From the NCBI GenBank assembly GCA_011364975.1, contig RDOE01000079.1, forward strand, positions 326 to 14,930: a stretch of DNA of 14,605 bases, given 5' to 3'. A program made the position numbers and the translations under genes. The DNA comes from Promethearchaeota archaeon. GTDB lineage: Archaea; Asgardarchaeota; Lokiarchaeia; Sigyniarchaeales; SOKP01. The notes under the pieces are model-generated. The model made no database searches. It was given only the letters and a program-made list of their open reading frames with translations, and was not told the DNA's origin. Positions 849 to 13,786 of this stretch are shown here, one piece after another; position 1 is the first letter of the stretch, and every line of letters starts with the position of its first letter.

Positions 849-1748
849 CTATAATAACAATTTTGATTTAATATAATCCCCTATTTTATTTATAGCCTCT
901 TGTCCTTCTGGAGCCCAACTAGCAAATGCTTGGAACACATGTATCATATCATCCCAGATTTTTAGAGTGATATCAATCCCCGCTTCTGTAGCTTTTTCAG
1001 CGAATCGAATCGAATCGCTTTTAAGTATTTCTGCATTTCCTGCATGGATTAGAATCGGAGGTAGACCTTCTAATTTTCCATAAAGTGGTGAAATAAGAGG
1101 ATTTTTAGGATCATTATTTCCAATATAAAGTTCAGCCAAGAAATAAAGCTCAGATGGTTTTAACCAAGGATCAATCTTAGCATTCTCTTTTATAGAATTA
1201 CCTGTCATTGCCAAATCGGTCCATGGTGAAAGACAAACAGCAGCAGTAGGTAGAGGGATAGATTCATCTCTCAATTTAATGAGGGTAGATAAAGCTAATC
1301 CACCACCCGCAGAATCGCCTGCAATAACGATTCTATTAGGAGGGATTTTTTCTTGTTCTAATAACCATTTATAACACAATATTGCATCATCTATAGCCGC
1401 AGGAAAAGGGTGTTCAGGTGCAAGCCGATAATCGATAAGGAGAATTCTACTTTTAGAAGCTCGAGAAATCCTCAGTGCTAAATCTTGATGGGATGTTAAT
1501 GAACCTGCTACATAACCTCCACCGTGCAAATACAAAATAATATTGCTCAAATTTGACTCATGAGTAGAAATCCAATTTGCAGCAATATTATTTATCCTTA
1601 TCTTTTCGATAGATACATCATCAGGAAGCTTTGCTAAAACTGCTAATTGTTCTAAACCTTCTCTGGATTGTGCTACTCTAATTCTAATATTTTTTTCACC
1701 ATTTTGCTTTAAAGTTTTAATAACTGCTTGCATTCCTTTACTTACCAT
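849..1748 (-). CDS. Alpha/beta hydrolase, hormone-sensitive lipase (family IV / Abhydrolase_3) esterase
   Basis: YLHGGGY oxyanion motif, DYRLAPEHPFPAAIDD, nucleophile elbow GDSAGG, LSPWTD, catalytic acid region GNAEIL and catalytic His in MIHVF. GGGGAG RBS upstream. Confidence 0.93.
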   Translation of the reverse strand: MVSKGMQAVIKTLKQNGEKNIRIRVAQSREGLEQLAVLAKLPDDVSIEKIRINNIAANWISTHESNLSNIILYLHGGGYVAGSLTSHQDLALRISRASKSRILLIDYRLAPEHPFPAAIDDAILCYKWLLEQEKIPPNRIVIAGDSAGGGLALSTLIKLRDESIPLPTAAVCLSPWTDLAMTGNSIKENAKIDPWLKPSELYFLAELYIGNNDPKNPLISPLYGKLEGLPPILIHAGNAEILKSDSIRFAEKATEAGIDITLKIWDDMIHVFQAFASWAPEGQEAINKIGDYIKSKLLL

Positions 1749-1810
1749 TTTATCTCCCCTAAAAAAAGTCTATTTATAGATATTATGAATAGATAACATA
1801 ATATTATGCT

Positions 1811-2500
1811 TTATCTATTTAAAAACTTCTTATAATCAGAACACAATAAATATTTTGGTGCTGTATCCTCTTCAATATCTGGAAATCTACTAACTTTTTC
1901 AACAAAAAAGTTGTCACCTATATCATCATTCACTCGAGAAACTTCACCTATTAGAATCTTTCCATTCTTCTTTTTTACCCAGAATTTATGGAATAATCTT
2001 GGTGGAATAGTTATTGATTCACCAGGAGATAACTCAATAATTGCTCCAGCTGCAAGGTTTGTTAATTCACCATCAATAGAAACCGTAATCTCGGAATTAG
2101 AAAATTTATTCTCATTATTGGAATTATATAATTGAACCATTAAGCTACATCCCCCGCGATTGATAATATCTTCCATTTTATTGGAGTGAAAATGCATTGG
2201 GATTTGTTGCACTTGCTCCATTATCATGATCTTTTCGCAATAATTTTTTCCTCCTTGATTGATTGTATTTGGATTACCGTTTCGTATCGTGAAATGTATT
2301 AAACCCATTTTATAAAAATCTCCTCGTCCATAATCTGTAATATCCCAACCTAATTTAACATCGATAATTTCATTTATTTCTTCACCTTTTCCTTTCCAGT
2401 CTTCTAGGCTCCAGTAAGCAAATTTGGGCAAGTAAAATTGGTGCTTTTTTAAAAATTTAATTGCTTTAGAAATAATCGAGTTAATTTCTGAGCGTTTCAT
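1811..2500 (-). CDS. D-lyxose/D-mannose family sugar isomerase (cupin)
   Basis: MKRSEIN N-terminus, LGWDITDYG, FTIRNG, YCEKIM, cupin metal motif PMHFHxxKMEDIINRGG, LSPGESITIPPxLFHKFW and GEVSxVNDDxxDNFF are all characteristic of the lyxose ketol-isomerase family. Confidence 0.92.
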   Translation of the reverse strand: MKRSEINSIISKAIKFLKKHQFYLPKFAYWSLEDWKGKGEEINEIIDVKLGWDITDYGRGDFYKMGLIHFTIRNGNPNTINQGGKNYCEKIMIMEQVQQIPMHFHSNKMEDIINRGGCSLMVQLYNSNNENKFSNSEITVSIDGELTNLAAGAIIELSPGESITIPPRLFHKFWVKKKNGKILIGEVSRVNDDIGDNFFVEKVSRFPDIEEDTAPKYLLCSDYKKFLNR

Positions 2501-2654
2501 CTATTTACCTTAAATTTTAATCTGTACTCTAAAAATATAAATAGATTCATTCGATATTAGTTTTTATAGATTTTTCAATAAAGAACAAACTTTACTAATC
2601 TTATATATTAATATTAATCAAACTGGTTTTATAACATAATAATATTAAAGTAAA

Positions 2655-3518
2655 ATGATAATAGACTTTCACTGTCACATCTTCCAAAAATACTATACTA
2701 GAGAGGAAATTGAAACTTTATTTAACAACTTTAGGGGATACGGGTTTTATGAAAGAATTTTAGAGAGCATGTCCAAATTAGAACCTATAAAAATTGATAA
2801 TATTGTTGAAAGAACTATTTTTTACATAAAAAATTCGGGTATTGATAAAGTTGTTCTACTTCCTGTTAATTCAAAGGAAAATTTAATTGCTAAAGAATGG
2901 TATAATGAAGCACCGGATATCTTCATACCATTTTTTAATCCTCCTGAAAAATTACAAAATGGAGTTGATGAAATGGAAGTCATTGAAGAAGCAATTAAAC
3001 TAAAAGGGTATAAAGGCTTTAAGATAATGCTTTCCTTTAGGAAAAAAAAGCTAAACGATGAACTCCTATTCCCAACCTTAGAAATTGCTACTAAATATAA
3101 AGTTCCAGTACTTATGCATAGTGGCTATCCACCCCCCGGAACTAAGAAAGGTGTTCTCACATACTCCAATCCAATTGTAATAGATGATTTTATCAATTCT
3201 TTTCCTAAGGCAAAGATTATTATCGCCCATATGGGATTTCCTTGGACAGATATTGCAATTGCTTTAGCTACGCAATATCCTAATGTCTATTTAGATATTA
3301 GTAATTTAACTTATATGATGCCAGATCATTTAAAGAGCCTCCTCATTCAGGCTAAGGAGATAATGGGGGTTGATAAAATCTTATTTGGAACAGATGGATT
3401 TCTTCCAGAAATGATTGAAATCGCAGTGAATTATTTTAAAGATGCTGAATTTCTAACAAAAGAAGAAATTAATAAAATTCTGGGATTGAATGCTCAGAAA
3501 CTATTGAATCTTACCTAA
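2655..3518 (+). CDS. Amidohydrolase family protein (Amidohydro_2-type TIM-barrel metallohydrolase)
   Basis: IIDFHCH (HxH), GFK, PVLMHSG, IIIAHMG, NVYLDIS, KILFGTD and a C-terminal ILGxNAxKLL. Confidence 0.9.
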   Translation: MIIDFHCHIFQKYYTREEIETLFNNFRGYGFYERILESMSKLEPIKIDNIVERTIFYIKNSGIDKVVLLPVNSKENLIAKEWYNEAPDIFIPFFNPPEKLQNGVDEMEVIEEAIKLKGYKGFKIMLSFRKKKLNDELLFPTLEIATKYKVPVLMHSGYPPPGTKKGVLTYSNPIVIDDFINSFPKAKIIIAHMGFPWTDIAIALATQYPNVYLDISNLTYMMPDHLKSLLIQAKEIMGVDKILFGTDGFLPEMIEIAVNYFKDAEFLTKEEINKILGLNAQKLLNLT

Positions 3519-3544
3519 TCTTTTAATTTGATTTTATATTATCT
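3519..3544 (+). terminator. T-rich spacer between convergent genes, probable archaeal terminator
   Basis: TCTTTTAATTTGATTTTATATTATCT follows directly after the amidohydrolase stop. Confidence 0.35.
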
Positions 3545-4681
3545 TTAAAATTTAATTCTTCTAACCTTACCATAATCTTTATTGATTTTTCTTTTCTCTC
3601 TTAACTCTGCCTTTCTCTTCGCGATAATTTGGTATAATTCATTGAAATTTTTAGGAGGTATCATTTCTTTCTCCTTTTTGATTAGGGTTCTAGCATTTTG
3701 AGGACATTTTGTGACACATACACCGCATCCTATGCAATATCCTAAATTAACTTCGCTAACATCATTTTCATTGAATTTATTTGCATCCATATGGCAACTT
3801 GAGATGCAATTGCCGCATCCTGTACAAAGGTCTTTATTTATTGTTATGTAATAGTTCGAATTAACAAAGCGTGCGGGGTTTTCATACTTTTTTAAATTTT
3901 CAAGGAACATACAAGAACATCCACAACAACTACATATCAAGAATGGCCATTGAGAATTACTAGGAGAAATAACCATTCCCATTTCTTGTGACTTTCGCAG
4001 AACTTCAAGCGCTTCCTCGTTTGTAATAACTCGACCTATTTGTAGAGGAAATCTTGGATTTGGGCCAATGGACATACATGTTTCTATTGGGTGATCGCAC
4101 CCTTTTCCTTGTATACTTTTTGATTGTCTACATATACAAGGACTAAGGTTAATCTTTCTTTTGTTGTTAATTAGAATTTTTTTTATTTCATCAAAATTAG
4201 AAATAGTATACTCTACTGGAACACTTTTTTCTACGGGAACAGTTCTGATCTGTAGAATTCCGTTTTCTAAGAAGCCAGAAATAAATCCTTCATCACAATA
4301 TTGGTCAAAGTCTTCTGCAAGTTCTTTAGTAAGCTTGTTAATTTGAAAATCATAAAATCCAGGCGCTAGAGGAACAATACCAAAGTAATTGACACCTTCT
4401 TCACTTTGAATCCACATTATCGCTCCTTTTTTAGCCATACCCAAAAGATATTCTGTGAATTGCTCAAGGGTCCACCCCTTTTTTTTAAAAGGCCTAAACA
4501 GTGCTTTTGCTTCTTGAGGGATAAATTTGAGATTTAACGCAATTTCCGCTTCTTGAGGAGTAAATAAGTGTTTTAAAATTCGAATTTCTACGCCGGATTC
4601 AGTCTCTGGGAAATCCACGGGAAGTGAATCAAGATACATTTGAAGTTTCCTATATATCTGATCTTCGTTTTTAGAACTCAT
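3545..4681 (-). CDS. 4Fe-4S dicluster domain-containing protein with N-terminal HTH-like region and extra Cys-rich centre
   Basis: Two ferredoxin motifs CTGCGNCISSC and CIGCGVCVTKCP. Additional CICRQ, ETCM and ICSCCGCSC motifs (18 Cys in total). The N-terminal ILKHLFTPQEAEIA...LLGMAKKGAI region is winged-helix-like. Confidence 0.85.
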   Translation of the reverse strand: MSSKNEDQIYRKLQMYLDSLPVDFPETESGVEIRILKHLFTPQEAEIALNLKFIPQEAKALFRPFKKKGWTLEQFTEYLLGMAKKGAIMWIQSEEGVNYFGIVPLAPGFYDFQINKLTKELAEDFDQYCDEGFISGFLENGILQIRTVPVEKSVPVEYTISNFDEIKKILINNKRKINLSPCICRQSKSIQGKGCDHPIETCMSIGPNPRFPLQIGRVITNEEALEVLRKSQEMGMVISPSNSQWPFLICSCCGCSCMFLENLKKYENPARFVNSNYYITINKDLCTGCGNCISSCHMDANKFNENDVSEVNLGYCIGCGVCVTKCPQNARTLIKKEKEMIPPKNFNELYQIIAKRKAELREKRKINKDYGKVRRIKF

Positions 4682-4941
4682 ATAACTAGATTAGCTTAGG
4701 GTTTTAAAAAGGTTACATTTTTGTAAATGAATTTTTCTAATATTTTATATAAAGAATTTTCGATCGAGATATAACTTTGTATTTTTGTAATAAATATATA
4801 GTGTCCTTGATGATCCTATTAATTTCTGATCTTTTCACTTCAATCTCTCGTTTAGATATTCAAATTTGAATAATAAATTGGATGTTTTTGAAACATAAGT
4901 AAAAATATAAAGATACGTCTCTTTTTTTAAGGTGATCAGTT

Positions 4942-5424
4942 TTGGGAACTCATAGTAAATATTTAAAAAAAGTTTTAAACAGCAGAACTAAGGAATATAT
5001 ATCAATAACCATGTTGATCTCCTTTATTGTGTTCATTAGTTATATTCCTAAATTCGGTTCTATAAAAGGTCCAGTCTTTCAAAATAAAGAGGTGAGATAC
5101 GGTGATGTATGGTATATTGATTTCAATAATAATAATGAATTAGATTGTTATGATTTTATCATTACAAATCCTCAATCTTATATTTATATTTTACTGCCTC
5201 AAAATGAAGGAGAGGAAGTTGTCTGCTTTTTCTTGAAAGGTGAATCTGTGATTCCAGCTATGGAACCACGGTCTGGATGTATTTTGTATTTGGATATACT
5301 GCATACTTACAATTTGAAATTAGGTACTTCCATGTTTTTGATTTTAATTTATATTTCTCTATCAACAACTTATTTCTTCATAAAAAGAAAGCATTTCCAA
5401 ATCATAAACAAGCTGTTGTATTAA
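4942..5424 (+). CDS. Hypothetical membrane protein (two TM segments flanking a loop with an EF-hand-like Ca-binding motif)
   Basis: TTG start 5 nt after a GGTGAT RBS (4931-4936). Hydrophobic segments YISITMLISFIVFISYI and LGTSMFLILIYISLSTTYFFI followed by KRKH. Contains the motif DFNNNNELDCYDF. Confidence 0.6.
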   Translation: MGTHSKYLKKVLNSRTKEYISITMLISFIVFISYIPKFGSIKGPVFQNKEVRYGDVWYIDFNNNNELDCYDFIITNPQSYIYILLPQNEGEEVVCFFLKGESVIPAMEPRSGCILYLDILHTYNLKLGTSMFLILIYISLSTTYFFIKRKHFQIINKLLY

Positions 5425-5578
5425 TTTCTGACCCTTTCTAATTGATATTTTTTTCCGCAAATTATGCTATAATGATCGCGACAAAGGTGTAAAAAATAAT
5501 GCGTGATTTTTTAAAATAATGCTTATTAAGGTCATTGTAATATTACTCAATAACTGAATATTTTCGAATAAAAAAGAG

Positions 5579-6388
5579 TTGAATCAGATGAAATTTATAG
5601 ATCTTTCGATACCTTTAATTAATCCAGATGAATTAATTTTTGATCCTCCTTTAGGCACCCCGAAAGTGGAATATAAAACTCATGAGACAGGAGCAGTGGA
5701 GATGGGTTTTGTTTTTCCTAAATTAAAACCTGAACATCTCCCTGATGGTAAAGGATGGGCGACAGAAACGATTACATTGGGTACGCATAGTGGAACTCAT
5801 ATGGATGCACCTTGGCATTTTGCTCCGATTCAAGATAAAGAAGTAGGTAAAAAAAAGGCATTAACTATAGACGAATTTCCTTTAGAATGGGGTATTGGAC
5901 CATTAGTTGTAATAGATTGTACGGATTATGAAGAAGGTTACATTTTAACTTCTGAAGATGTTGATAAAAAGCTAAAAGGTATAGCCCATACCCTTAAGGA
6001 AGGTGATATTTTTTGTGTTCATACTAATGCACCGAAACATTTTGGGACCAAGGAATATATCAACCATGGAGTTGGAATGGGTAAAGATGCTACATTACAT
6101 ATAGTAAGACAAGGAGTACATGTAGTTGGTATTGATGCGTGGTCATGGGATGCACCCTTTACGTTAACAGCAAAAAAGTGGAAAAAGTCTGTTAAAGAGC
6201 AAAAACCAGATACTTCGATTATTTGGGAAGGGCATTTTGCGGGAATTGATTTAGGATATTTCCAAATGGAAAAAATGATGAATTTAGATAAAGTGCCACC
6301 GGTGGGTGCCACGGTATACTGTTTTCCAATAAAGATCGCTAGAGCGAGCGCTGGTTGGGTGAGAGCTGTTGCTACTATTCCTGATTAA
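5579..6388 (+). CDS. Cyclase family protein (kynurenine formamidase/KynB-like metal-dependent hydrolase)
   Basis: FIDLS N-terminus, signature HSGTHMDAPWH (HxGTHxDxPxH), VGIDAWSWD, QMEKMMNLD and FPIKI...SAGWVRAVA. The true start may be the ATG at 5588 (MKFIDLS). Confidence 0.92.
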   Translation: MNQMKFIDLSIPLINPDELIFDPPLGTPKVEYKTHETGAVEMGFVFPKLKPEHLPDGKGWATETITLGTHSGTHMDAPWHFAPIQDKEVGKKKALTIDEFPLEWGIGPLVVIDCTDYEEGYILTSEDVDKKLKGIAHTLKEGDIFCVHTNAPKHFGTKEYINHGVGMGKDATLHIVRQGVHVVGIDAWSWDAPFTLTAKKWKKSVKEQKPDTSIIWEGHFAGIDLGYFQMEKMMNLDKVPPVGATVYCFPIKIARASAGWVRAVATIPD

Positions 6389-6417: not shown

Positions 6418-8649
6418 TTATTCTTCCTTAAAAATGTTTTCTACTAAGATATGATCTTCCTTAAAATGAATTAAGGCACCACTCCAATCCTGTAAAATTT
6501 CCTCATATTTATTTTCAAAAGTGGTTACAAATTCCTTCAATCTACTTCGAACTTCAGAAGTTTGTTTTCCTTTAACGAAAAGAGCTCCAAATATGCGTTT
6601 CCCATACTCAAGTAGAATCGTAATATCTCCATGATCAATGGTTTTAAGTAAATCTTCAGATCTTGTTGTCTCTTTAATAAAGGAGGTAATAGCAGAAAAC
6701 ATTCCAGATATTAACCCAGGATCTTGTGAAAATTCCTTCGAAAAGTTATAGTCAAATATACCACGTCCATCATCATATATAATATAAAGTCCTTGTTTTT
6801 CGACTCTCTCAAAAATGTAGCTAAATTCTTGTTTCTGAAGATCAATAAAATCCTTATTATATAGATATTTAAGTGTAAAATAGAATCTTTGACTTTCTTT
6901 TTCATCTTCCGGTCGAATTTCTTCCAATAATTTAGGTTCTTCAATTATATTTAATAACGAGAGAATTTCCTCACGTTCAGAACTAAGTTGCTGTAATGGT
7001 ATATTATCTTTTTTTGCGACTAGAATTGGTGCTTTTAACTTTGTATATTCAGGATAAGAAAGAAAATCTGAAATAGAGGAAAAAATTACTTTCTTAATAT
7101 GTCCCTCATCTAAGAGTAAGTTTCTTACATTAAACTCTTTTTTCATATAATGAAGTAGTAGCCCCCAGATGATAATATTAAACACATATTGCGTGGATAA
7201 GTAAGGGATTGCTAAGAAGAAAAGTATTCCAGAGAGATCTGCATTAAATCCAGCAGTTCTTAAAGTAAAAAAGTTAAATCCAAAAACGGTGGTATAACTT
7301 GATTGTCCTGTAATCCAATAAGTATTAGGCGCAAAATTGATCAAGCTATAGGCACCTATAGCTGTAAATATAACCGAGAGGGCTATGATTATTGGTATAT
7401 AGGTAATAAGTGTTAAGAAATTACTTTTCATATACCGAAAGCTCAAATTCAAGAATATTGCTGCTATTAACAAAGCAATGACTATCAATACGATAAAATT
7501 AAATATATTCATTAAATCAAATCCAAAAGTTTGATAGAGATATAAAGTGCCTGGGAGAGCAATATTTGCTGAATTGATTATTGTCCAAGGATTATCACCA
7601 AAAATTAATAAGTAGATTGGACCAGAAACAAGATAATTGAGGAGAAAAAATACAAAAAAAGCTAAACAACTAAAAACAATTCCATAATAAAAATTGGTGT
7701 AATTGATATTCTTTCGCTTTTCCTTTTTATTTTTCCACCAGTCAACAAGTTTAACGAAAATTATTAAAGAAATTGGTTCAAATATTTTCAAAAATAAAAG
7801 AAAAATGATAGAGGCCATAATGAAATAAGCAAAGAAATAAATAATTATTCCAATGGAACCAATATCTTCAACTATGAATAAAATGATCGATAGTATAGAA
7901 ATGGGCGTTCCAACAGTATAGAGACTCTTATAAGCTTGCTGTCTGATACTTTCTCCAAAATATTTTCCCTTTAGAGCAATCTGAGAGCTAAACAATAACT
8001 CCAAACTAAAAATAAATGTAGCTAAATAGACAAATAAAATTTCAATGAACCATCCAACAGCAGTTTCACCAGTTGTTATCGAAATAAGCTGTAATCCATT
8101 TATTTTTAAGATTACTTCCAGCAAATAGAGAGAAATAGGTAATAAAACAATCATTAACTTTAATATCTCTTTCTCTCTTACCCAATTTCCTTTAAGTAGC
8201 GCATTTTTGATCTGTCTAGAGGGGCTTTCTGAAACATTATAGGTTAATCCTTTTAAAGTTTCAGCTTTGGAATCATTTTCTTTTCTTACCTTATTCCAAG
8301 CAAGTAAAAGCGAAATGAATGGAGCTAAAAAGAAGATGAAAGGTAAGGTGACCAATGGATAATATGCAAATAGTGTGATTAAAGAACCTATATGAGCAAT
8401 TATATATCCGATCCCTAAAAGTAAGTTTCCTTCTTCTCCACTTTGTAAAGTAAGCTCTTTAGGTGGAGTATTGAATTGAAATATAAGGGGTAAAATCCAA
8501 TAGATGAGATAAAAAACCATAATTCCGAGCATTATTCTATAATATATTTTGCCAACAATTTTCTTTCTAATGAAAGGATACGGTATAATCAATAGAATTA
8601 TAGGTATCGCGTTAAGTAAAAAAGTATAAGTAATTTCGATTGCTGTCAT
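6418..8649 (-). CDS. Polytopic membrane protein (about 12-14 TM) with C-terminal longin/roadblock-like domain
   Basis: The first ~500 aa are mostly long hydrophobic segments. The last ~125 aa (GLYIIYDDGRGIFDYNF...DPGLISGMFSAITSFIKE...LKTIDHGDITILLEYG...FGALFV...EVRSRLKEFVTTFENKY...DWSG) follow the beta-beta-alpha-beta-beta-beta-alpha-alpha longin-like pattern that is expanded in Lokiarchaeia. Confidence 0.8.
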   Translation of the reverse strand: MTAIEITYTFLLNAIPIILLIIPYPFIRKKIVGKIYYRIMLGIMVFYLIYWILPLIFQFNTPPKELTLQSGEEGNLLLGIGYIIAHIGSLITLFAYYPLVTLPFIFFLAPFISLLLAWNKVRKENDSKAETLKGLTYNVSESPSRQIKNALLKGNWVREKEILKLMIVLLPISLYLLEVILKINGLQLISITTGETAVGWFIEILFVYLATFIFSLELLFSSQIALKGKYFGESIRQQAYKSLYTVGTPISILSIILFIVEDIGSIGIIIYFFAYFIMASIIFLLFLKIFEPISLIIFVKLVDWWKNKKEKRKNINYTNFYYGIVFSCLAFFVFFLLNYLVSGPIYLLIFGDNPWTIINSANIALPGTLYLYQTFGFDLMNIFNFIVLIVIALLIAAIFLNLSFRYMKSNFLTLITYIPIIIALSVIFTAIGAYSLINFAPNTYWITGQSSYTTVFGFNFFTLRTAGFNADLSGILFFLAIPYLSTQYVFNIIIWGLLLHYMKKEFNVRNLLLDEGHIKKVIFSSISDFLSYPEYTKLKAPILVAKKDNIPLQQLSSEREEILSLLNIIEEPKLLEEIRPEDEKESQRFYFTLKYLYNKDFIDLQKQEFSYIFERVEKQGLYIIYDDGRGIFDYNFSKEFSQDPGLISGMFSAITSFIKETTRSEDLLKTIDHGDITILLEYGKRIFGALFVKGKQTSEVRSRLKEFVTTFENKYEEILQDWSGALIHFKEDHILVENIFKEE

Positions 8650-8743: not shown

Positions 8744-9835
8744 ATGTCAGAACATAAAATTGGTTTAATTATTGATGATGACTTTGCCTTTAAACATATT
8801 CCACCATATCCAAAGCCATCATTTATTTCATTTGAGAATCCTTATCGTATCAAATTTATTTTAGATCACCTTGCAGAATGGAATCTAATTGAGAATGATA
8901 AATTGATAACGCTAAGTCCTAGACCCATTAACGATACGATACTTGAGTTAGCGCATTCAAAATATCACATTGATTCCATTAAGCGGGTTTCGAATGTCGG
9001 TGGAGGGGTTATTGGTGAAGAAGTGTTTGTTTCAAAAGATACATTTCTGTTAGCCAGAAAAGCAGTAGGAGGGGCAATACGAGCATTAGAATGCGTAATT
9101 AATAATGAAGTATCTCAATCTTTTGCTTTAATTCGCCCTCCGGGTCATCATGCTATGAGAGAAGCAGCTGCAGGGCTCTGTATCTTTAATAATATCGCAA
9201 ACGCTATCCTTTATATAAGAAAATACTGTGATTTTAAAGAAAAGATTGCAATTATCGATATTGATAATCATTTTGGAGATGGTCTTGCTCGATATTTTTA
9301 TGAAGATCCTTCTGTTTTATATTATTCAATCCATGAGTTTGACTTTGGAGAGGGTGATTTAGGTATGATAAATGAAATAGGAATTGGAGAGGGACTTGGT
9401 ACAAACATTAATATACCGATTCCTCCAGAATCCACAAATGAAGACTTTTTTGAATGCTTTGAACTAATGGAAACGATAATTCGACAGTATAAGCCTGAAT
9501 TGATAATCATCGCGACTGGTTTTGATATGTATTTTGCAGATCCCATTGGAAATTGCTTGTTTACTAGTAAAGCGTATTATGAGTTTGCTAAATTTATTTT
9601 AAATCTCTCAAAAGAAATCTGTCATGGAAATATAAGCTTCATTTTAGAGGGAGGATACAGTCTAACCGGTTTACCATATTGTGTGAAAGCTATTATTAAA
9701 GCTCTTTTAAATGAAGAATTATTTCAACCAGAATTTGAATTAAATGTTACTTCACTTAAACGTAAAGATATCAATGAAGTTCAAAAGATTAATGAGATAG
9801 TAAAAGAAATAATCAAACCTTTTTGGGATATATAA
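8744..9835 (+). CDS. Histone deacetylase family (class II-like / AcuC-AphA superfamily) Zn-dependent deacylase
   Basis: ENPYRI, RPPGHHA (catalytic His dyad), GLCIFNNIA, IIDIDNHFGDG (Zn ligands D, H), YSIH, GEGLGTNINIPI, TGFD...DPIG (Zn ligand D) and LEGGY (catalytic Tyr). Confidence 0.92.
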   Translation: MSEHKIGLIIDDDFAFKHIPPYPKPSFISFENPYRIKFILDHLAEWNLIENDKLITLSPRPINDTILELAHSKYHIDSIKRVSNVGGGVIGEEVFVSKDTFLLARKAVGGAIRALECVINNEVSQSFALIRPPGHHAMREAAAGLCIFNNIANAILYIRKYCDFKEKIAIIDIDNHFGDGLARYFYEDPSVLYYSIHEFDFGEGDLGMINEIGIGEGLGTNINIPIPPESTNEDFFECFELMETIIRQYKPELIIIATGFDMYFADPIGNCLFTSKAYYEFAKFILNLSKEICHGNISFILEGGYSLTGLPYCVKAIIKALLNEELFQPEFELNVTSLKRKDINEVQKINEIVKEIIKPFWDI

Positions 9836-9864: not shown

Positions 9865-10269
9865 TTAAACCAAATTTGTTAATTTTTTGGCATAAGCTTG
9901 AACTGCGAATAAGGCATCTCTAGGACCTATTTGAGGATTGATATAGCAGATTAGGGCTCCCGTTCCACCTATAGGGATTGGTGCAATAATTATATGTCCT
10001 TTACCTGTAAGATTAGTACCAATTTTGCGTTCTTCAGTATTTTCGACGATCATATACTTAATTCCTTGGATTGAAATACTGCTCATTCCTTTTTCCCCAA
10101 GGGCCAATTTAGTTCGTAATAATTCATTAATGAGATTCAATTCAGTTGAGAGATCCCAATTTTCAGTTTGAGTTATTATTTCTCCAGAGGTGCTTATCAC
10201 AGCAACACCATATACATTTTGCTCTTCATTTAGAAGTTCATCAATTACACTTTCTATTTCTGATGACAT
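9865..10269 (-). CDS. Asgard (Loki-type) profilin, actin-monomer-binding protein
   Basis: 134 aa with profilin architecture: N-terminal helix (IESVIDELL), GVAVISTSGEIITQTENW, SISIQGIKYMIV (compare the eukaryotic lxlxGxKYmvl strand), GKGHIII, ALICY and a C-terminal helix (AVQAYAKKL). As recalled, it closely resembles characterised Lokiarchaeal profilins. Confidence 0.92.
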   Translation of the reverse strand: MSSEIESVIDELLNEEQNVYGVAVISTSGEIITQTENWDLSTELNLINELLRTKLALGEKGMSSISIQGIKYMIVENTEERKIGTNLTGKGHIIIAPIPIGGTGALICYINPQIGPRDALFAVQAYAKKLTNLV

Positions 10270-10296
10270 ATTCCCAAAACTTTTATTATCATTTTA

Positions 10297-10327
10297 TTAT
10301 ATAACTAATACAAGCAATTTATATAAA
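10297..10327. promoter_or_regulatory. Back-to-back TATA boxes of the profilin / ABC permease divergent promoter
   Basis: TTATATAA (10297-10304) lies 27 nt upstream of the profilin ATG. TTTATATAAA (10318-10327) lies 20 nt upstream of the permease GTG. Both are perfect palindromes, 13 bp apart. Confidence 0.55.
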
Positions 10328-10347
10328 AAATTAATTTTTACAAATCG

Positions 10348-10911
10348 GTGTTACTTTTGGCTTTTAGGTTATTTAAAAAATCAATTATAATGATATTAAG
10401 AGAAAAAAAGCAGTTCACAGTATTTTGTTTAATGTATACCATCTTGATATTTTGGACTAGCTATTCTATTGAACTGGTAATTGGTGGAGCAGGTACTGGT
10501 CTAGCAAGTGCTAGTTTCTTTATTGCATTAGGTGTGGGAGTTTCACTTTCGCTATTATATGCATGGATTATCGTGAGAAGAAACTCCAAAAACATAGCTA
10601 CTTTAAAATGTATAGGATGGACGAATAGAGATATTAATTCTTTGGTAACTGGCTTCATCATGTTTACCACAATTGTAGGGTTTATAATTGTAGTAGAAGT
10701 GTTATTCCACTATGTAGCCATTTTAGGGTATTTTCTTTCCGCTGATCCTGCTGGAGGGCATCTAGTTACCTCCTTGCCATTAGTAGGGCTCTTACCGGTT
10801 GTAGTTACTTTCATAATTTTCCTCTTTTTTCAAGTTATGGCAATATTATTAGCTAATAGGAAAATCTTGAGAGTTCGACCTATAATAGCATTGAAAAGAG
10901 TTGGAGAATAA
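10348..10911 (+). CDS. FtsX/MacB/LolC-family (type VII) ABC permease, minimal 4-TM form lacking the extracytoplasmic domain
   Basis: Amphipathic N-terminal helix (LAFRLFKKSIIMILREKKQF), 4 TM segments, coupling helix RRNSKNIATLKCIGWTNRDI (family consensus RxxEiaxlkalGxxxxxI) and C-terminal RKILRVRPIIALK (consensus rAxrlxPieALr). Adjacent to its ATPase. The start is GTG 10348 or ATG 10390. Confidence 0.82.
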   Translation: MLLLAFRLFKKSIIMILREKKQFTVFCLMYTILIFWTSYSIELVIGGAGTGLASASFFIALGVGVSLSLLYAWIIVRRNSKNIATLKCIGWTNRDINSLVTGFIMFTTIVGFIIVVEVLFHYVAILGYFLSADPAGGHLVTSLPLVGLLPVVVTFIIFLFFQVMAILLANRKILRVRPIIALKRVGE

Positions 10912-10927
10912 GGAGGATGAGAAAAAT

Positions 10928-11620
10928 ATGCCAGTAGATAAAGATACGATGATAGAAGCTATTGATGTAAATAAAGAGTATAGAAGAGCAGGAGCTATAA
11001 TTCGAGCTCTTGCCGATGTGAATGTAACAATCAAATCTGGAGAATTTGTAATAGTTCAAGGTCCAACAGGTTGTGGAAAAAGTACACTTCTTAATGTTCT
11101 GTCCGGTTTAGATTTACCTGATTCTGGAAAGATTATTTTTGATGGAGAGAATATCGCGAGGGCTACCGAAGATCGTTTAAGCAAGATAAGGAGACAAAAA
11201 ATAGGATTTGTATTTCAAGATTTCAATCTGGTTCCAACTTTAACAGCAATTGAAAATATCGAAGCATTATTATGGCCTACAGTTTTGCGAGAAAAAGAAA
11301 TAGAAAATAGAGCAATCTCCGCTCTAAGAGACGTACATCTACTCGAACGAAAAGATCATTATCCCGTTCAAATGTCTGGCGGAGAAAAACAGAGATGTGG
11401 ACTTGCTCGGGCAATAGTACATCGCCCCAGAGTTATTTTAGCAGATGAACCAACTGGAAATTTAGATCCTGAGTCAGAAAAGCAGGTTATGGACCTTCTA
11501 AAACAAATTAATAAAGATATGGAGACCACTGTGATTGTTGTTACCCATAGAGCTTCTTTGTCATCTTATGCTGATAAGGTCGTAAGTATGGATAAAGGCG
11601 CTATTATTAAGATTAAATAA
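10928..11620 (+). CDS. ABC transporter ATP-binding protein, LolD/MacB/FtsE (MJ0796-like) family
   Basis: Walker A GPTGCGKST, IGFVFQDFNL Q-loop, signature MSGGEKQR, Walker B/D-loop ILADEPTGNLD and H-loop VVTH. Start placed at ATG 10928 after AGGAGGATGA (10911-10920). The ORF track start is TTG 10901. Confidence 0.95.
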   Translation: MPVDKDTMIEAIDVNKEYRRAGAIIRALADVNVTIKSGEFVIVQGPTGCGKSTLLNVLSGLDLPDSGKIIFDGENIARATEDRLSKIRRQKIGFVFQDFNLVPTLTAIENIEALLWPTVLREKEIENRAISALRDVHLLERKDHYPVQMSGGEKQRCGLARAIVHRPRVILADEPTGNLDPESEKQVMDLLKQINKDMETTVIVVTHRASLSSYADKVVSMDKGAIIKIK

Positions 11621-11857: not shown

Positions 11858-12598
11858 ATGGGCTTTGGAAGAGTCGTTTGGACGGGTATCGTTGGGATGA
11901 TATTCCTATTGTTGACTTCATGGGTTAGCTTTTCTTTGCTAGATCTTACTGGATCAGTGACCGGTGGTTTAATAACAAATTTGAACGCAGGATTGTCTGC
12001 TTTAGGTGGGCTTATACCAGGATTTGGAGGGTTTCTTTCTATTTTGGCAAGTATGTTTCTTGGACTAATCCTAATTCTACTATTTCCGATTCATTGGTGT
12101 CTTTTTTATAGACCAGACGATGTATTGCTTATAATTTCTGTGATACTACCTTGGATATTGACCTGTAGTCTTATAGCTGCCATCGGGGCACACTCTCCGC
12201 GGGGAGGAATTCATTCAAGCTTAGCAATCGGGATTGGTTACATAATCATAACACTATTGCTTTACTTTTTAATCCCCCTCATACCGGGTATAGGGTCTAT
12301 CATTGGAGGTGTTATCGATGGATTAGCATCGGGATTAACAGATCTGCCTTTTGCTTTAGCCACATTCACCGCAATTCTAGAAGGATGTTTGGTAGGGGCA
12401 GTATTTGGTGGATTTATTGGAAGTTTAAAATATAAGGGTATAGGCGGTGGAAAGGCACCTAAAGCCAAGAAAATTAAGGGAACAAAAATAGATGAAGCGG
12501 AACCAACCTTAGATAGCTCTGCATTATGCAAAAATTGTGGAGCTAAGCTTATTCCCGGGGATGACTTCTGTACTAACTGTGGAAGCAAAGTAAAGTGA
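11858..12598 (+). CDS. Gly-rich membrane protein (about 5-6 TM) with C-terminal zinc ribbon
   Basis: Hydrophobic Gly-rich helices with GxxxG motifs (GCLVGAVFGGFIG), a Lys-rich linker and a terminal CKNCGAKLIPGDDFCTNCG (CxxC-x10-CxxC zinc ribbon). Confidence 0.85.
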   Translation: MGFGRVVWTGIVGMIFLLLTSWVSFSLLDLTGSVTGGLITNLNAGLSALGGLIPGFGGFLSILASMFLGLILILLFPIHWCLFYRPDDVLLIISVILPWILTCSLIAAIGAHSPRGGIHSSLAIGIGYIIITLLLYFLIPLIPGIGSIIGGVIDGLASGLTDLPFALATFTAILEGCLVGAVFGGFIGSLKYKGIGGGKAPKAKKIKGTKIDEAEPTLDSSALCKNCGAKLIPGDDFCTNCGSKVK

Positions 12599-12778: not shown

Positions 12779-13786
12779 ATGTCAAGAACAGTTAAAGGAG
12801 TAATACTCACCCGATTAATAGTACTATTAAGCATAATTTTAATCCCTATAACGATTTTTGTAATTTTTTCTGTCGTTGATTTTAACTTGTGGTATTCTAA
12901 TGATCCAGTTCTTAAATTTTGGATTATAAAATTCGTATGTCCTCTGGTATTTAGTATTTCTTGGTTATTTTTTCTGATTTTATTTGCAAATCGGTTAGCA
13001 AACGCGATCGATACATTTGATGAGAAAATTGGTGTTGTTCCCTCACGTTTAAAGTTTTTTTATGGTATAAATGCCTTGTACCTTTTAATTATATTTGTTT
13101 TACCTCTTGTTACTCCCATAATTTCAATATTGAGTTTTGCCTCTTTTGCCTGGCACTTAACTACGTTTAAAAAAGAAAGTTGGGAGGAGGATTCCAAAGT
13201 ATCTTTCATTACAAAGTTATCTATAGTATTAGCTTCTATAATCCCAATTTTTTGTACAATTACTATAATTCCTGAATATTTAGATTTACCCTTATTTCTT
13301 TGGAATACCATATGGGTGCCAAATCTTGATTTACTCTTCACGGTATCCTATTCTTTATTCACGTCGCTCGCGTTCGGGTCTCTCATAATACTCTTTGCGA
13401 ATAAAGGAATTAGTGAATATGAGCAACTCTATGTCGATTCTACGCAAAAAAAAAGTTTTGCTAATGTAAAAATACTGGAAGTATTTCTCTTTGGTTTCTT
13501 TTTGTTCTTAGATTTATATAACTATACTCTAATTCAGTTATTTTACTGGGCAGGATTTATCATTATTATATTTACTTCACTTGTTAATTACGTTCAAGGT
13601 AAATCGAAATATGGTAGTTTTAAAAGCCATTTTATGGGTTATTTAATTGCTATGATATTTATCGGATCTAATGTTGTTTTTTCGAATGAAACCGTCTCGG
13701 AGTTCTTAAGAGTGTGGAGTCTCCTTCTCTCAGCAATTTTATACATTTTTGTATTGTTTTATACCTTTCTTACCATAGAAGATTGA
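12779..13786 (+). CDS. Hypothetical polytopic membrane protein (about 9-10 TM)
   Basis: 335-aa ORF with ATG start, made of hydrophobic segments separated by short charged loops. No family recognised. Confidence 0.8.
   Translation: MSRTVKGVILTRLIVLLSIILIPITIFVIFSVVDFNLWYSNDPVLKFWIIKFVCPLVFSISWLFFLILFANRLANAIDTFDEKIGVVPSRLKFFYGINALYLLIIFVLPLVTPIISILSFASFAWHLTTFKKESWEEDSKVSFITKLSIVLASIIPIFCTITIIPEYLDLPLFLWNTIWVPNLDLLFTVSYSLFTSLAFGSLIILFANKGISEYEQLYVDSTQKKSFANVKILEVFLFGFFLFLDLYNYTLIQLFYWAGFIIIIFTSLVNYVQGKSKYGSFKSHFMGYLIAMIFIGSNVVFSNETVSEFLRVWSLLLSAILYIFVLFYTFLTIED

Follow-up and report, generated by a model that had tools for sequence, protein, structure and literature searches.

The main profilin gene of a Loki-type archaeon lies beside a miniature ABC (ATP-binding cassette) system of type VII whose permease has been stripped of its outer domain, and throughout one Asgard order the two are adjacent at all loci that could be evaluated. 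The locus was studied in a 14,605-nucleotide stretch of a Promethearchaeota archaeon genome (GenBank assembly GCA_011364975.1, contig RDOE01000079.1, positions 326 to 14,930 of the forward strand), referred to here as the window; it has a GC content of about 30% and belongs to a genome of 3.74 Mb in 200 contigs. Profilin (134 amino acids [aa]) is encoded at 9865-10269 on the minus strand and is an orthologue of solved Loki profilins. Two genes point away from it on the plus strand, one for a mini-permease with the FtsX fold of type VII ABC systems (10348-10911; 187 aa from a GTG) and one for an ABC ATPase of the MacB/LolD/FtsE type (10901-11620; 239 aa from a TTG). The reading that we favor, tentatively and at somewhat less than an even chance, is a conserved, probably co-regulated neighborhood of two separate machines, with the ABC system working in the membrane plane, and not a dedicated profilin-handling device.

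Evidence for the adjacency comes from three sets of loci, which overlap in genomes and were classified with profile hidden Markov models (HMMs) after being fetched: genus-level loci (L006-L034), regions from across the phylum (L035-L074), and loci found by scanning 185,579 species genomes for a motif (L075-L154). At the genus level, profilin was divergent from and adjacent to the permease in 28 of 29 loci, with gaps of 69 to 226 bp by longest open reading frames; the remaining locus is cut by a contig end. Twenty-two of the 40 regions from across the phylum showed adjacency, one had an insert of 1.6 kb, one carried profilin downstream on the same strand, and 16 had none. Counting just the 25 regions from the order (L035-L052 and L068-L074), 22 were adjacent, one had the 1.6-kb insert, one had profilin downstream on the same strand, and one was cut. 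The motif scan yielded 62 adjacent, divergent loci out of 80, together with two inserts (1.6 and 2.7 kb), two loci with profilin downstream on the same strand, six that are cut upstream, and eight without profilin, of which L132 is cut just past the permease and L148-L154 come from other classes. The adjacent class includes loci titled Promethearchaeum syntrophicum MK-D1 (L146), Lokiarchaeum ossiferum (L140), and Harpocratesius repetitus (L135). The inserts that part profilin from permease in two genomes of the window's own family, f1, measure 1.6 kb (L042/L110) and 2.7 kb (L112).

Adjacency extends beyond close relatives, to families f1 to f4 of the order, and does so in two arrangements. A lone adjacency in a single genome is at chance level; one kept across an order probably is not. 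At the deepest adjacent loci, identity is 34 to 39% for the permease, 37 to 47% for profilin, and 60 to 69% for the ATPase. In f1, a block of seven genes is kept, comprising a 743-aa multi-transmembrane (multi-TM) protein (TM743), a histone-deacetylase-family gene (HDAC), profilin, the permease, the ATPase, a glycine-rich multi-TM protein with a zinc ribbon (TMZn), and a 335-aa multi-TM protein (TM335). TM743, HDAC, TMZn, and TM335 are all absent within ±5 kb at three f3 loci (L047-L049), where profilin, permease, and ATPase still stand together; these three genes, retained there after the rest of the block is gone, form the conserved core. The second arrangement is that of f4, in which permease, ATPase, profilin, and TMZn lie on one strand in all three evaluable genomes. 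Inversion of the ABC cassette alone was considered as the origin of this order and rejected, given that TMZn remains downstream; profilin itself therefore switched sides while remaining inside the cluster. The spacing between ATPase and profilin in f4 is 13 bp in L051, with GGTGA within it, and 109 bp in L143, while L181 has an insert of 1.65 kb. Judging by its short gap and GGTGA, the ATPase-profilin junction of L051 likely belongs to an operon.

Together, the two plus-strand genes encode a miniature type VII ABC system, built on a four-helix FtsX fold that lacks the outer domain. The permease (184 to 187 aa) matches the Pfam FtsX family (PF02687) at 31.1 bits, against a cut-off of 25.5, over residues 56-164, and no PDB chain matched it at the sequence level. 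An AlphaFold2 (AF2) model made with a 21-sequence alignment, with a predicted local distance difference test score (pLDDT) of 91.4 and a predicted TM-score (pTM) of 0.84, has helices at residues 2-18, 20-46, 50-78, 80-88, 93-132, 148-174, and 179-185. The topology of the model is an N-terminal amphipathic helix, TM1 (20-46), TM2 (50-78), a coupling helix, TM3 (93-132), and TM4 (148-174). TM1 ends at residue 46 and TM2 restarts at 50, and with a linker of three residues the permease therefore has no outer domain; across the 21-sequence alignment, the TM1-TM2 region amounts to no more than about 20 residues. Among the hallmarks of type VII ABC systems, the FtsX-type domain, the four TM helices with N-terminal and coupling helices, and the cognate ATPase are all present, and the large extracytoplasmic domain between TM1 and TM2 is absent. 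Foldseek searches with the model, up to an E value of about 0.7, returned only type VII permeases (FtsX, HrtB, LolE, YtrF, MacB, and BceB), and structural neighbors in the ESM Atlas agree with this assignment. Within the family alignment (A1), R18, Y30, Q162, P178, and A181 are invariant and E117 is nearly so.

The ATPase scores 118.3 bits with ABC_tran, and its best NCBIfam models are FtsE (205.4 bits) and LolD (205.0), followed by DarD, DevA, and MacB (177.5), all below their equivalog cut-offs. With the FtsE cut-off standing at 264.85 bits and an outer domain missing from the permease, the pair is not FtsEX proper. A Walker A motif, the signature MSGGEKQR, a Walker B motif with DE, and an H-loop can be read in the sequence, by which the ATPase is predicted to be a catalytically complete enzyme of the MacB/LolD/FtsE type. 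In 143 of 149 loci, its gene directly follows that of the permease and shares its strand.

The identities that the sequence-only reading, an earlier annotation made from the letters of the window, had given to profilin, the type VII permease, and the ATPase were borne out by phmmer searches of PDB sequences, PF02687, AF2 with Foldseek, and ABC_tran, as was its view that the permease lacks an outer domain, as evidenced by the three-residue TM1-TM2 linker in the AF2 model. Its picture of profilin and permease diverging across 78 bp holds for the orientation and probably needs correction for the distance. Permease homologues begin with MAFRLFKK, which corresponds here to a TTG at 10357 with GGTG (10347-10350) just ahead of it; that TTG is the likelier start, and the promoter spacer between the divergent genes (10270-10356) is therefore more likely 87 bp than the 78 bp measured to the GTG at 10348. 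Likewise, ATPase homologues begin at query residue 10, an ATG at 10928 that is preceded by AGGAGG at 10911-10916. With this likelier start, which gives 230 aa, the 11-bp overlap between permease and ATPase genes is probably not real. The spacer contains two AT-rich boxes 14 bp apart, one serving minus-strand profilin (about 10293-10304) and one serving the permease (about 10318-10329), which are putative TATA boxes going by what is known of archaeal promoters. Within the genus, the spacer is almost invariant (TTTTATTATATAAC...ATTTATATAAAAAATTAATTTTT...CGGTGAA); beyond the genus, both its length and its sequence vary.

The minus-strand gene is the main Loki-type profilin. Pfam PF00235 matches it at 24.2 bits versus a 25-bit cut-off, spanning residues 5-130 of 134 and profile positions 3-122 of 127. 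Against PDB sequences, phmmer matched it to 5yed_A/5yee (E = 7.3e-61) and to 5zzb_A (E = 8.8e-60), in both cases over residues 1-134, with weaker matches to 5zza_P (E = 1.9e-12) and to 7pbh_A, which is named Profilin (E = 1.4e-4). The window's own genome holds three profilin matches, at 100, 36, and 29% identity, and no ABC gene was found within the fetched ±1.5 kb of either of the two further paralogues. The solved Loki profilins are described as having been crystallized by themselves and in complex with rabbit actin, and as being sensitive to phosphatidylinositol 4,5-bisphosphate (PIP2) without binding polyproline; regulation of actin and a response to PIP2 are reported for Asgard profilins (PMC8410842). 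Orthology to the proteins described there would make the window's profilin an actin binder as well. A surface motif specific to the adjacent profilin orthogroup was sought and rejected, since QTENW/TENWD is common to nonadjacent paralogues. In sister orders, profilin-like domains sit inside open frames of 735 to 805 aa (421 aa in G128), at G123:C96:148-444, G123:C178:7571-7885, G125:C267:9925-10221, and G128:C8:6400-6711, which suggests multidomain proteins carrying a profilin module.

Among 400 genomes of the phylum that were searched, 283 encode the permease, including 114 of 134 in f1, the one genome of f2, 12 of 14 in f3, and all four in f4. Five f1 genomes without a permease match were looked at for co-loss with profilin. 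Four of them also lack this profilin orthologue and the fifth has it at contig bases 47-448; missing assembly fits these absences, which are no evidence of co-loss. Run against 1.84 billion representatives, a profile search produced 890 matches at E ≤ 1e-3, 31 of which reached E ≤ 1e-30. Proteins of 109 to 202 aa fill the top 33 rows, and from rank 34 (E = 6.5e-29) there follow proteins of about 400 aa that match in two stretches, that is, ordinary FtsX permeases with an outer domain. Within the Asgard archaea, families f13 and f16 have best genomic frames of about 400 to 417 aa that match profile positions 44-178 only, and this long permease of about 400 aa is the only form found there. The motif ATLKC[IL]G[WY]xN occurred in 87 stretches among the species genomes scanned, 85 of which encode relatives and 80 of which were kept; their record titles name Asgard lineages or "uncultured archaeon" in all cases except one. 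With its nearest relatives being FtsX permeases of about 400 aa and its kept motif loci Asgard, the mini-permease family looks Asgard-restricted and looks derived from a form whose outer domain was lost. As a version of the type VII ABC fold that has no outer domain, the permease is new, and it is apparently confined to Asgard archaea.

The single exception among the titles, L101 (Candidatus Nanopelagicaceae bacterium), is a complete Asgard-type profilin/permease locus with a permease 59% identical to that of the window, and the record is probably mis-binned or mislabelled. Five further records (L075, L084, L104, L114, and L115) are titled Odin, Hermod, Thor, or Hod, yet their loci are 57 to 82% identical to the window's permease; to judge from that identity, the class labels in these titles look unreliable. 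Look-alikes in the ESM Atlas, a cluster of 187 aa mostly from Spirochaetota and a cluster of 151 aa from Nitrososphaerota, serve as leads only, and neither was among the full-length top matches of the profile search.

Outside the order, at least 11 more family-level lineages have the permease-ATPase pair, and on this basis the mini-ABC is an autonomous machine. In about seven of these lineages, the neighbors are housekeeping genes: NUDIX in f5 and f7, DUF4147/MOFRL in f8, a CoA transferase in f9, ELP3 in f29, arginine-synthesis-like genes in f28, and NAD-synthesis-like genes with a TM protein in f19. In other lineages, the neighbors are eukaryote-like. In f26 and f27, where one locus is titled Candidatus Odinarchaeota, a protein of 377 to 434 aa is encoded divergently from the ABC genes at a distance of 28 to 111 bp in nine loci (L060:3747-4880, and also L059, L061, L066, L067, L148, L149, L151, and L152). 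Its N-terminal half is Bet3/V4R-like, its C-terminal end is a zinc ribbon, and it also has a cysteine cluster and an ARPC4-like domain. The protein scores 22.5 bits with Pfam ARPC4 (cut-off 22.2), and the f26 copy scores 14.4 bits. With a low-confidence model (pLDDT 61.2), the top Foldseek matches are to chain F of Arp2/3 structures (E = 1e-4; target TM-score [TMt] of about 0.6), a chain which we take to be ARPC4, and the N-terminal half of the fusion matches Bet3/TRAPP and H-NOX folds. In the window's own genome, Pfam ARPC4 gave no match, but the control was silent too, and the A2 profile matched only a V4R-like frame of 170 aa and zinc-ribbon pieces.

Eukaryote-like neighbors also occur in f30 to f32. 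In f30, the gene upstream codes for a fusion of a longin-like domain with an Arf-family GTPase, and the one downstream codes for a SNAP-family protein (30.8 bits). In f31, represented by 17 loci from 16 genera (L155-L171), all 17 have a Ras-family GTPase gene divergent and about 0.4 to 0.6 kb upstream. Downstream, each also has a 276-aa TPR/PCI-like homologue of the f30 SNAP-like protein (28% identity; E = 3e-31), and within 3.5 kb a gene for inositol-1-phosphate synthase, with a peptidase-like gene also in the block. The f31 block runs myo-inositol-1-phosphate synthase, peptidase-like gene, and Ras-family GTPase, followed divergently by mini-permease, ATPase, and the 276-aa SNAP-like homologue. 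In f32, a 206-aa longin-like protein is encoded upstream (a subthreshold match to Pfam longin; E = 1e-7 with the f30 domain) and a TM335 homologue downstream. The window has a counterpart in TM743, whose cytoplasmic C-terminal end (6421-6900) matches the N terminus of the L063 longin-Arf fusion (E = 3e-6) and the L065 206-aa protein (E = 4e-5) by BLASTP and is longin-like by jackhmmer (E = 1.9e-5); Pfam finds nothing there.

How might such a system work? Two permeases and two ATPases would assemble, and ATP binding would close the ATPase dimer, pressing on both the amphipathic helix (2-18) and the coupling helix (80-88) and thereby setting the TM helices scissoring. Since only three residues lie outside between TM1 and TM2, the work would be done inside the bilayer. 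One option is that a lipid-like or hydrophobic molecule would be extracted or flipped, in the manner of HrtBA, LolCDE, and YbbAP, perhaps with the conserved intramembrane E117/Q162 as the candidate site for the substrate. Another is that a partner membrane protein, for example TMZn or TM335, would be driven by helix contacts. TMZn homologues lie beside the ABC genes in f1, in part of f3, and in the three evaluable f4 genomes, and TM335 homologues do so in f1 loci and in the distant f32 (L065:3197-4189; tblastn E = 2e-14, jackhmmer E = 3.3e-71); TMZn, a frequent companion of the cluster, is a possible membrane partner of the ABC system. Profilin would act on actin at the same membrane. The back-to-back promoter region of f1 to f3 and the likely operon in one f4 genome suggest that profilin and the ABC system may be used in one membrane process. 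A link through inositol-type lipids, which are modulators of Asgard profilins, is the most concrete possibility and a speculative one.

Several points weigh against our favored reading of a co-regulated neighborhood of two machines. Every line of evidence for the profilin-ABC link is positional, and a lipid role for the mini-ABC is speculation. Within f4, a T-run stands between ATPase and profilin in L143, so an operon is not general in that family. Outside the order, no profilin was found within 4 to 5 kb of the pair in any of 15 loci (L053-L067; best HMM E = 0.26) nor, within the fetched flanks of 4 to 5 kb, in 17 f31 loci or five loci of f7, f28, and f19. The Pfam Profilin model, with one match in five genomes from other classes, is too insensitive for Asgard profilins; our own profile, A4, built from the adjacent orthogroup, finds profilins in five of five genomes from outside the order (best E = 9e-32 to 6e-11), always on contigs other than that of the ABC genes. 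In a single-contig genome of 1.4 Mb, profilin lies about 1 Mb from the ABC genes. The pair is thus kept without an adjoining profilin outside the order, and it therefore has its own job. Adjacency does not extend across Asgard classes, and the apparently unrelated deacetylase in the seven-gene f1 block means that part of the adjacency is merely inherited. On a rival view, the synteny is nothing but inherited, with no common regulation or function, the ABC system being an ordinary small exporter or extractor (for instance, of a hydrophobic toxin or peptide) that landed beside profilin in the order's ancestor and has yet to be parted from it. This account, which we regard as unlikely although it comes closest to ours in probability, draws on the HDAC-family gene within the f1 block, on the housekeeping neighbors in f5, f7, f8, f9, f19, f28, and f29, and on the profilins there lying on other contigs or about 1 Mb away. 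It sits poorly with a trio that stays intact in L047-L049 where the other block genes are gone, that survives the relocation of profilin in f4 (with the 13-bp gap of L051), and whose permease has diverged to 34 to 39% identity.

The tight, order-wide adjacency and the operon-like 13-bp junction of L051 could also be taken to mean direct coupling, as the sequence-only reading put forward, in which the cytoplasmic face of a permease2-ATPase2 complex would bind profilin or profilin-actin and, through its ATP cycle, would bring it to the membrane or let it go there, by analogy with the action of FtsEX on FtsA. We think this very improbable, the least probable of the readings weighed here: the pair is kept without an adjoining profilin in at least 11 other family-level lineages, so that profilin is not a general client, and no profilin surface motif is tied to the ABC system, TENWD being common to nonadjacent paralogues. 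A broader proposal, which we rate as quite unlikely, treats the mini-ABC as a general membrane engine for the eukaryote-like machinery of Asgard archaea, with a cytoplasmic partner that is specific to each lineage: profilin in this order, the fusion with ARPC4-like and Bet3-like parts in f26/f27, and, in f30-f32, longin-like proteins together with small GTPases and a SNAP-like protein. With 17 to 34 Ras-family matches per genome, a given neighbor would be of the Ras family by chance about 1% of the time, and TM743 in the window bears a similar longin-like end. Even so, the pattern was found post hoc, and the f30-f32 loci share elements and may represent one event; the whole f31 block is syntenic, including the inositol-1-phosphate synthase and the peptidase-like gene. 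Seven other lineages have housekeeping neighbors, the ARPC4-like model has a pLDDT of 61, and the longin matches fall below Pfam cut-offs. In its strongest form, this proposal makes the outer-domain-less ABC motor an ATP-driven membrane anchor of an archaeal eukaryote-like cytoskeleton and trafficking toolkit, its client varying by lineage; that, too, we hold to be a long shot, although, if it is true, the motor would be a forerunner, in prokaryotes, of the energy-dependent coupling of cytoskeleton to membrane.

Expectations of the sequence-only reading about synteny can be set beside these results. The adjacency that it had seen in one genome is not limited to that genome, being found in families f1 to f4. 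The comparison of synteny among Asgard classes that it proposed comes out in favor for one order, with 62 of 80 motif-scan loci adjacent, and against beyond it, where the pair was never beside profilin. It had also reasoned that a mini-permease common in settings without actin or profilin would count against an actin link. This objection holds in part: in other Asgard lineages the pair is indeed common with no profilin beside it, and no mini-permease was found outside Asgard archaea by the profile search and the motif scan.

How Asgard archaea tie the actin cytoskeleton to the membrane to form protrusions is a question that bears on how eukaryotic cells came about. The locus described here is a concrete candidate for a membrane-actin link, in that a small ABC motor unable to act outside the cell is kept beside the main profilin gene throughout an order, and both of the Loki-type strains in culture have the locus. 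Should the profilin link prove purely regulatory, the permease would still be the smallest natural version of the type VII ABC fold encountered here and useful for asking what that fold does without an outer domain. Full-text searches of the literature yielded no paper in which profilin is linked to an ABC or FtsX system of Asgard archaea. Regarding expression, the only RNA-labelled run with the locus (X1) contains 96% of sampled words of L146:3400-5400. On L146:1-8549, X1 produced two contigs, of 11,384 and 6,106 bases, which take in the whole stretch at a flat depth of about 300 to 330, for which DNA carry-over is possible; X1 contigs show neither transcript ends nor levels. Filed as transcriptomic, X1 has contigs up to 89 kb that are flat over genes and spacers, and it behaves like DNA or pervasive coverage. 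A second run (X2) covers only L146 4555-5005, at a depth of 3.

The remaining genes of the window flank the trio. Downstream on the plus strand are TMZn (11858-12598), whose C-terminal zinc ribbon matches Zn_Ribbon_1 at 28.6 bits over residues 224-245, and TM335 (12779-13786), which matched no Pfam or NCBIfam family. On the other side, the HDAC gene (8744-9835, plus strand; Hist_deacetyl 240.3 bits) is convergent with profilin. It stands beside profilin in f1 and in some f3 loci and is absent from the fetched ±5 kb of L047-L049, making it part of the f1 synteny block and outside the conserved core. TM743 (6418-8649, minus strand) has no Pfam family and is longin-like in its C-terminal residues, about 110 in number. 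The stretch from 849 to 6388 is metabolic, with genes for alpha/beta hydrolase, D-lyxose isomerase, amidohydrolase, 4Fe-4S, and cyclase-family proteins; in the fetched f3 loci, tblastn located none of them beside the ABC genes.

Comparison with known systems places both machines. The solved Loki profilins (5YED/5YEE and 5ZZB) resemble the window's profilin over its full length, which is their orthologue from another genus, and nothing notable sets it apart from them. For the ABC pair, FtsEX (8TZJ, 8X61, and 8I6Q) shares the separate permease and ATPase genes, the four-TM FtsX fold, and the amphipathic and coupling helices; FtsX is the best Foldseek match of the permease (8tzj_C; E = 8.7e-4), and FtsE is the best-scoring NCBIfam model for the ATPase. 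FtsX differs in having an outer domain that grips EnvC or PcsB, where the mini-permease has its three-residue linker. In bacteria, FtsEX acts on FtsA; archaea are not known to have a peptidoglycan amidase partner. In addition, bacterial ftsE precedes ftsX, unlike the order here, in which the permease gene precedes that of the ATPase. MacB, LolCDE, YbbAP, YtrEF, and BceAB share the permease fold and the ATPase subfamily with the mini-ABC (LolD, 205.0 bits; MacB, 177.5 bits), and they differ in having periplasmic domains of the 200-aa class or additional TM helices, along with partners that are external or in the membrane. The highest structural overlap is with the heme extractor HrtBA (7W7C and 7W78), as evidenced by 7w7c_B, with TM-scores of 0.67 for the query (TMq) and 0.78 for the target (TMt) and a root mean square deviation of 3.7. 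Although HrtB, at 341 to 344 residues in 7W7A and 7W78, is about twice the length of the mini-permease and shares 16% sequence identity with it, HrtBA works on a hydrophobic molecule in the membrane, which is the mode proposed for the mini-ABC.

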